Below, piece by piece: positions 1 through 407 of a stretch of DNA of 407 nucleotides. Position numbers and translations under genes: made by a program. Source of the DNA: Escherichia coli (lineage in GTDB: Bacteria > Pseudomonadota > Gammaproteobacteria > Enterobacterales > Enterobacteriaceae). The notes under the pieces are model-generated. The model saw only the letters and a program-made list of their open reading frames with translations. It was not told the DNA's origin and made no database searches. The stretch's first letter is position 1. Each line of letters starts with the position of its first letter. The stretch lies in NCBI RefSeq assembly GCF_003334255.1, contig NZ_QOWU01000246.1. One strand, 5' to 3'.

Positions 1-72
1 TTGTAAATCCCCGTGAAGGCAGATGCGTGCCAGTGGCGGTGACGCCAGACAGAATGCGTTCGTCGTTGCCAT
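1..72 (-). CDS. I: Phage tail assembly protein I homolog (lambda gpI family), N-terminal 24 codons only; continues beyond window position 1
   Basis: An ATG at + 72..70 (minus strand) opens a frame reading MATTNAFCLASPPLARICLHGDLQ up to the window edge. This resembles the N-terminus of lambda gpI as I recall it (roughly MAATHTLPLASPGMARICLYGDLQ...). It is in a different frame from K and overlaps K's 3' end, as in phage lambda. A purine-rich Shine-Dalgarno-like tract lies upstream. Confidence 0.75.
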   Translation of the reverse strand, partial: MATTNAFCLASPPLARICLHGDLQ

Positions 73-407
73 TTTTCGGAATACCTCTCCCGTTTACTCA
101 GTTGTTCAGGCAGATGGTGAAGCAGCTCACCGTTGCCGCAGTAAATGGCGGCATGGTTGGCCACCGATGCGCCAAAGCAGCACAGCAGAATATCGCCCGC
201 CTGTGCAGAGGACAGGGGCACCCGGTAAAAGCCCGTGGCCTCCATATTGTCCAGGTACAGGTTCTGGCCGTTGCGCCACCACTCATCCTCGCGGTGAAAA
301 TCCGGCATCTCAGTCCCCGCCAGATGGTAGGCATCCCGGAACAGCGTGTAACAGTCCGTCACCCCGTGCTCAAAGCGCCGTCCTGTCAGATGTGGCACAC
401 AGCGGAA
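1..407 (-). CDS. K: Phage tail(-tip) assembly protein K homolog (lambda gpK family), C-terminal NlpC/P60 (C40 peptidase-like) domain; internal fragment, truncated at both window edges
   Basis: Reverse-complement frame beginning at + position 407 is open for all 135 codons: FRCVPHLTGRRFEHGVTDCYTLFRDAYHLAGTEMPDFHREDEWWRNGQNLYLDNMEATGFYRVPLSSAQAGDILLCCFGASVANHAAIYCGNGELLHHLPEQLSKRERYSEKWQRRTHSVWRHRHWHASAFTGIY. It contains an NlpC/P60-like arrangement: Cys in TDCYTLF (+351..353), His in ANHAAIYCG (+153..155), and a second His 12 residues later in ELLHHLP (+117..119). The sequence closely resembles the C-terminal part of lambda gpK as I recall it. Neither start nor stop lies in the window, which is why the ORF track did not report it. 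Confidence 0.85.
84..91 (-). promoter_or_regulatory. Shine-Dalgarno-like ribosome-binding site (GGGAGAGG on the minus strand) for the I start codon
   Basis: The minus strand reads ...aaacGGGAGAGGtattccgaaaaATGgca..., placing the purine tract 11 nt upstream of the I ATG. The spacing is on the long side for a canonical SD, and the tract lies inside the K coding sequence, so it is constrained by K codons as well. Confidence 0.45.

Follow-up and report, generated by a model that had tools for sequence, protein, structure and literature searches.

The stretch of DNA studied here, 407 nt long and called the window in the following, is very probably part of an operon for tail-tip assembly from a temperate, lambda-like siphovirus, and its most probable source is a prophage of E. 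coli or of a very close relative. It contains the C-terminal part of a gpK-like gene and the beginning of a gpI-like gene overlapping with it (Table 1). The lambda-like K/I tail genes of the window are already known and ordinary. About three quarters of the complete E. coli genomes contain the same pair, as do hundreds of sequenced lambdoid phages, and the window adds one more allele to it.

Reading frames and the peptidase domain of gpK

The coding content of the window lies on the minus strand; the strand had not been given in the preliminary description. Frame 0 of this strand is free of stop codons through 407/407 bases. It begins with FRCVPHLTGRRFEHGVTDCYTLF, ends with ASAFTGIY, and its whole translation, the K fragment of 135 codons, reads FRCVPHLTGRRFEHGVTDCYTLFRDAYHLAGTEMPDFHREDEWWRNGQNLYLDNMEATGFYRVPLSSAQAGDILLCCFGASVANHAAIYCGNGELLHHLPEQLSKRERYSEKWQRRTHSVWRHRHWHASAFTGIY; the ORF exceeds the window at both ends. 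In frame 2 a stop is followed by an ATG at window 72..70, from which MATTNAFCLASPPLARICLHGDLQ is translated and the frame stays open to the window end, so that I follows K inside the window. Since both frames run off the window ends, they were missing from the program-made ORF list. In a BLASTN comparison the window aligns over 407/407 bases and with 0 gaps to lambda J02459 (positions 14438-14844), in which K is located at 14276-14875 and I at 14773-15444. In lambda K, which is annotated with 199 codons, the K fragment corresponds to codons 55-189.

Table 1. Features of the window (407 nt). Positions refer to the window.
Feature	Position	Strand	Basis
gpK-like tail-tip assembly protein gene, C-terminal part	1..407	-	open frame, lambda identity, PHROG 30
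NlpC/P60 (C40) papain-like peptidase domain, complete	42..383	-	PF00877, fragment residues 9-122
Codon of predicted catalytic Cys19, motif TDCYTLF	351..353	-	motif position
Codon of predicted catalytic His85, motif NHAAIY	153..155	-	aligned to the THVGIY histidine of 9ubf and 4hpe
Codon of predicted third triad residue His98, motif LLHH	114..116	-	weak alignment, inferred
gpI-like gene start, first 24 codons (MATTNAFCLASPPLARICLHGDLQ), equal to the K/I overlap	1..72	-	-1 frame relative to K
Possible Shine-Dalgarno-like site GGGAGAGG	84..91	-	sequence reading; inference only

The computed G+C content of the window is 58.5%, in agreement with the earlier hand count of about 58%. Similar values are found for the equivalent region of lambda (57.7%), the lambda tail region from 11.0 to 19.5 kb (57.4%) and the head-tail module of the closest E. 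coli prophage (56.7%), while the host flank prfC/osmY of the latter has 51.5%. By itself the high G+C content is only weakly diagnostic of a phage tail origin. The K and I translations had been described as similar yet not identical to lambda gpK and gpI. This was borne out by the alignments, in which 118/135 residues of K (87%) and, against residues 1-24 of lambda I, 16/24 residues of I are identical.

The Pfam model PF00877 matches the K fragment over its entire length (model positions 1-105/105) with an E-value of 6.1e-14, and PHROG 30, described as 'minor tail protein', is matched with an E-value of 1.5e-87. The K proteins of the relatives are labelled 'C40 family peptidase' by PGAP. All motifs of a Cys-His-His triad occur in the K fragment, and from what is known of this triad in NlpC/P60 proteins we take Cys19 to be the nucleophile. 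His85 is aligned with the corresponding histidine of the solved NlpC/P60 hydrolases 9ubf and 4hpe, in weak matches with E-values of 0.004 and above. His98 aligns with the H of 'YHA' in the same two structures, a weak match, and would be the third residue. Cys19, His85 and His98 are thus the predicted catalytic triad of K. No solved structure of gpK or of a close protein was present in the PDB copy searched. The JAB/MPN metallopeptidase domain (HxHx7Sx2D) is located upstream of the window; the 247-aa K proteins of the nearest relatives carry it as HSHPGGLPWLSEAD.

For a population comparison 88 relatives without gaps were used, which amount to 52 distinct sequences in the alignment. In the part of K outside the overlap with I, variable columns were counted at 21, 5 and 67 of 111 sites each for the first, second and third codon positions, as is typical of a gene under purifying selection. 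Between the window and lambda the same part of K shows 33 synonymous and 14 non-synonymous codon differences.

One observation concerns the annotation of K in lambda itself. Near position 14266 the classic record J02459 reads GGAGGCTATTTCC, whereas the sequence is GGAGGCGTATTTCC in resequenced lambda (LC730321), in phage O276 and in other relatives. The G lacking in J02459 splits the K ORF, and lambda K is therefore annotated as a protein of 199 aa starting from an internal Met. The 247-aa K of the relatives begins directly behind L with MTQTESAILAHARRC... and has the N-terminal part of the JAB domain as well. A difference of one base is thus what divides K in the classic lambda record.

The start of gpI and other signals in the overlap

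The ATG of I is kept in 88/88 ungapped relatives and, as judged by eye, also in Fels-1; it aligns with lambda position 14773. The K stop is found at the same codon in all 88 ungapped relatives, 145 codons from the window start, and 72 of the 103 bases of the K/I overlap are contained in the window. The full I protein of the nearest relative starts with the same 24 residues as that of the window. PF06805 (Lambda_tail_I) was detected in a relative with the same 24 residues at I residues 15-97 (model 3-83/83, E 5.2e-16), and the share of the window in the ubiquitin-like beta-grasp domain of I would amount to the first ~10 residues of that domain. The full I of the nearest relative matches PHROG tail families with an E-value of 1e-87. 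Beyond the window the I proteins of the relatives have a Gly-Gly end (AGAGKGG...), a hydrophobic linker and a C-terminal plug domain.

Within the overlap the variable columns are distributed over the three K codon positions as 4/24, 5/24 and 9/23. Third positions of K, which are first positions of I, are less variable here than outside the overlap (9/23 versus 67/111, P=0.07), and second positions of K, which are third positions of I, are more variable (5/24 versus 5/111, P=0.016). This pattern, based on small numbers, fits dual coding. As a possible Shine-Dalgarno-like site of I, the sequence GGGAGAGG ends 11 nt 5' of the start codon, a spacing above the optimal one.

Annotators do not agree on the start of I. 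It is placed 103 nt inside K in lambda J02459, in Stx-phage records and in BP-4795, ASU11 and Fels-1, whereas in PGAP and some other annotations it coincides with the K stop codon or lies further downstream, resulting in proteins of 193 aa or fewer. At locus L001, for example, I extends over 12336-13016 and is annotated as 12435-13016; a similar discrepancy is seen at L008, L009 and L092. The conserved ATG, the start of PF06805 and the shift in variable codon positions favour the long I, begun inside K, as the probable coherent form. It is coherent because the PF06805 domain begins at I residue 15, and with the short-form start the first strand of the ubiquitin-like domain would be lost. For annotation this means that automated pipelines often let gene I begin some 100 nt too far downstream.

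Other signals were looked for in the window. No Rfam family was found at E-values up to 1, inverted repeats are absent, the direct repeats consist of two short ones attributable to chance, and no promoter-like or terminator-like sites were detected. A K-I fusion by programmed -1 frameshifting was considered because the profile of PHROG 28576 spans both K and I. This family of 'unknown function' has 399 positions, of which 67-200 are matched by the K fragment and 193-393 by I, and it looks like a K-I fusion family, whose members could be either real fusions or frameshifted gene calls in the overlap. Fusions of TAPI to TAPK or TAPJ have been described for some prophages (Iyer et al., PMC1779556). 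The frameshift candidate was rejected, as no canonical X XXY YYZ heptamer occurs in the K frame of the overlap, be it in the window, in lambda or in Fels-1. The A-run at the start of I is not conserved in lambda. The further mechanically detected ORFs of 51, 27 and 20 aa were rejected as well, their starts being lost or stops being gained in the relatives.

Relatives, gene order and alternative origins

A megablast search against the phage collection returned 227 matching records, and for hundreds of phage records the E-value was 0, a similarity well above chance level. The top phage matches share 96.3% identity with the window and comprise Stx1a- and Stx2a-converting phages, PPompW-type prophages and induced temperate phages of E. 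coli; the annotation under the phage matches names tail assembly proteins or tail tip assembly protein K. A more sensitive search of the phages added the lambda-group phages (84-86%) and Salmonella Fels-1 (78%). Of the 5,426 complete E. coli genomes 3,947 are matched, at a median of 2 and a maximum of 14 places per genome, and 12,732 of these 12,771 places are chromosomal, the other 39 being on plasmid records. The best E. coli match (98.0%) is a chromosomal prophage beside prfC in NZ_CP116067. It differs from the window at 8 positions, which cause 3 synonymous and 4 non-synonymous codon differences. In PLSDB 47 plasmid records match with identities of up to 96.6%. An exact copy of the window was not found in the BLAST collections, where 98.0% is the best value, and an exact 200-base piece of it is absent from IMG/VR, the GTDB representative genomes and the JGI metagenomes.

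Compared with the 88 ungapped relatives the window has 0 private bases. It can be tiled by exact segments of four different relatives, covering minus-strand positions 1-92, 93-113, 114-281 and 282-407, and is thus a new mosaic combination of known alleles from the pool of its relatives. Such mosaics are an expected product of recombination between lambdoid prophages that reside in the same cell.

Two records deserve a separate remark. Aeromonas phage AP1 (MT713136, 253762-253844) contains a 96.4% match to 83 nt of the window (query 302-384, minus strand), which is located at the end of a 254-kb jumbo-phage record. Such a match is unexpected for a lambdoid sequence of E. coli and could stem from contamination or from a chimeric end of the record. 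In ON470597 (vB_EcoS-569R3, 1501-1921) the region equivalent to the window has an insertion of 14 nt; K is annotated there with 285 aa and I is shortened by a later start, pointing either to disruption of the K/I junction or to an assembly error in this partial genome.

In the relatives K and I stand in a lambda-type tail module. In NZ_CP116067 the block starts with a head-tail joining protein, portal, S49 peptidase, decoration protein, major capsid protein and FI, continues with a head-tail joining protein, tail proteins, G, T, the tape measure and an M-like protein, and ends with L, K (a 247-aa C40 peptidase), I, J and a tail fibre; next come DinI and the host genes prfC and osmY. Eight of the 10 annotated relatives cover both sides and have L upstream of K and J downstream of I; in 7 of those 8 M lies upstream of L, and Fels-1 has a Lom-like gene at this place. 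The 689R5 record stops inside J and has the same gene order up to that end. We also retrieved 80 IMG/VR loci with the K fragment. All 80 are colinear, 56 with the full M-L-K-I-J order and the others shortened only by contig ends. The intergenic gap between I and J is an insertion point for cargo in the relatives. The Stx2a phage Stx2_EH1846 (L006, 2707-3234) carries sodC, a Cu/Zn superoxide dismutase gene, there on the opposite strand, and hypothetical genes occupy the gap in Fels-1 (L010, 2567-3091) and ASU11 (L005, 2678-2878).

The preliminary description had assigned the window to a lambdoid tail module related to, but different from, lambda, and had proposed to check this by database searches and by inspection of the flanking genes. 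The assignment is supported, with 84.3% identity to lambda against 96-98% to other prophages and phages. The best BLAST matches all lie in tail regions of lambdoid phages or prophages (K/I or C40 family peptidase), and the relatives show L, J and mostly M at the expected sides, with no context outside a tail operon.

That the window is phage lambda itself, derived from a laboratory strain, from cloning-vector carry-over or from contamination, would agree with its genes, frame arrangement and ungapped colinearity, which are as in lambda K/I. However, 64 mismatches separate the 407 bases from J02459, the resequenced lambda and lambda-like isolates give the same 84.3%, and the level of the species Lambdavirus lambda (about 95% or more) is not reached, while many other phages and prophages are far closer. 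Because of this identity we regard lambda itself as excluded, with a negligible probability. Scarcely more credible is a housekeeping gene of the host for an NlpC/P60 cell-wall hydrolase of the MepS/NlpC type. The PGAP name of the relatives is 'C40 family peptidase' only, and there are weak sequence matches to solved cell-wall hydrolases. Yet the best PDB match of the K fragment to such NlpC/P60 hydrolases has an E-value of just 0.004 over ~60 residues. The NCBIfam model for phage proteins of this family, TIGR02219 (putative phage cell wall peptidase, NlpC/P60 family), gave 25.6 bits and did not reach its cut-off of 81.9, the query being the K fragment, though with the entire domain, and no host-hydrolase family was returned. 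The host hydrolase is excluded because K is found between L and I/J in the tail operon of every relative, because PHROG tail families are matched at E 1e-87, and because the start of I overlaps the 3' end of K.

A tail-operon fragment of a lambda-like phage could also belong to the remnant of a decayed, cryptic prophage, or be carried by a plasmid or phage-plasmid, instead of residing in an intact inducible chromosomal prophage. Many lambdoid prophages are defective, up to 14 copies of the K/I region occur per E. coli genome, and the plasmid matches mentioned above (39 places in the E. coli set and 47 PLSDB records) point in the same direction. Against this, both the K and the I frame are intact within the window, the substitutions in K show purifying selection, and nearly all places in the E. 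coli genome set (12,732/12,771) are chromosomal. We consider such a location the less likely one, though of appreciable probability. A different type of alternative is a separate hidden gene in the +1 frame of K, where a minus-strand ORF of 78 codons extends over window 98..334. This ORF and its start codon are intact in 52/52 distinct sequences, lambda included. When K was recoded synonymously with the local codon usage, however, the longest stop-free +1 run had a mean of 92 codons, and a run of at least the observed 86 was obtained with P=0.59. In addition, the ORF products of window and lambda share only 58% identity, compared with 85% for the K proteins in the span of the ORF, as expected if the K frame alone is under selection. 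Chance and sequence composition account for the ORF, and a hidden gene is highly improbable. The preferred reading therefore remains that of a K/I fragment from the tail operon of a lambda-like phage, and the copy would sit in a prophage.

Function and comparison with known systems

By cryo-EM and mass spectrometry gpI of lambda was found in the virion (PMC10721106). Its C-terminal part (lambda residues ~135-223) forms a trimeric plug in the lumen of the tail tip, and this plug keeps hold of the tape-measure protein at its C-terminus; virions contain no gpK (PMC10721106, PMC12617516). According to the Ur-lambda study gpK is needed for tail assembly, its location being unknown (PMC12617516). 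Iyer, Burroughs and Aravind described gpK as a double peptidase composed of a JAB/MPN metallopeptidase and a papain-like NlpC/P60 domain, recognised at the N-terminus of gpI a ubiquitin-like beta-grasp domain that has a glycine at its C-terminal end, and proposed in 2006 that gpI is processed by gpK (PMC1779556). This published prediction fits the observation that the N-terminal 134 residues of gpI are unseen in the structure.

Applied to the window, the peptidase domains of K would process gpI during assembly of the tip, for example by releasing the ubiquitin-like domain. That the K/I overlap matters for stoichiometric or coupled expression and that processing of gpI by gpK is real is a speculative combination, to which we assign a low probability. 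If true, coupled expression and processing would apply to the whole family and would not be special to the window. In practical terms the window can serve as a marker of a lambda-like siphovirus with a J-type tail tip, which the source DNA either contains or represents.

Three known systems can be compared with the window. Lambda shares with it K and I in the same order, with the same relative frames and the same start position of I inside K. Conserved in both are the motifs of the NlpC/P60 triad and, where the ubiquitin-like domain of I begins, the sequence ARICL(H/Y)GDLQ. Differences concern 17/135 residues of K and 8/24 residues of I; most of the latter fall into the first 13 residues, while ARICLYGDLQ of lambda is nearly unchanged as ARICLHGDLQ in the window. 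Much closer are the lambdoid prophages of E. coli and the Stx-converting and PPompW-type phages (NZ_CP116067, LC567818, BP-4795), which have a nucleotide identity of 96-98%, first 24 I residues identical to those of the window and the full M-L-K-I-J module; none of them is identical to the window. In the system of a JAB and NlpC type K with a ubiquitin-like I (PMC1779556), the window contributes the papain-like NlpC/P60 domain of K and the predicted beginning of the ubiquitin-like beta-grasp domain of I, with both genes adjacent, whereas the JAB domain of K, the Gly-Gly end of I and its C-terminal plug domain lie beyond the window and are seen in the relatives.
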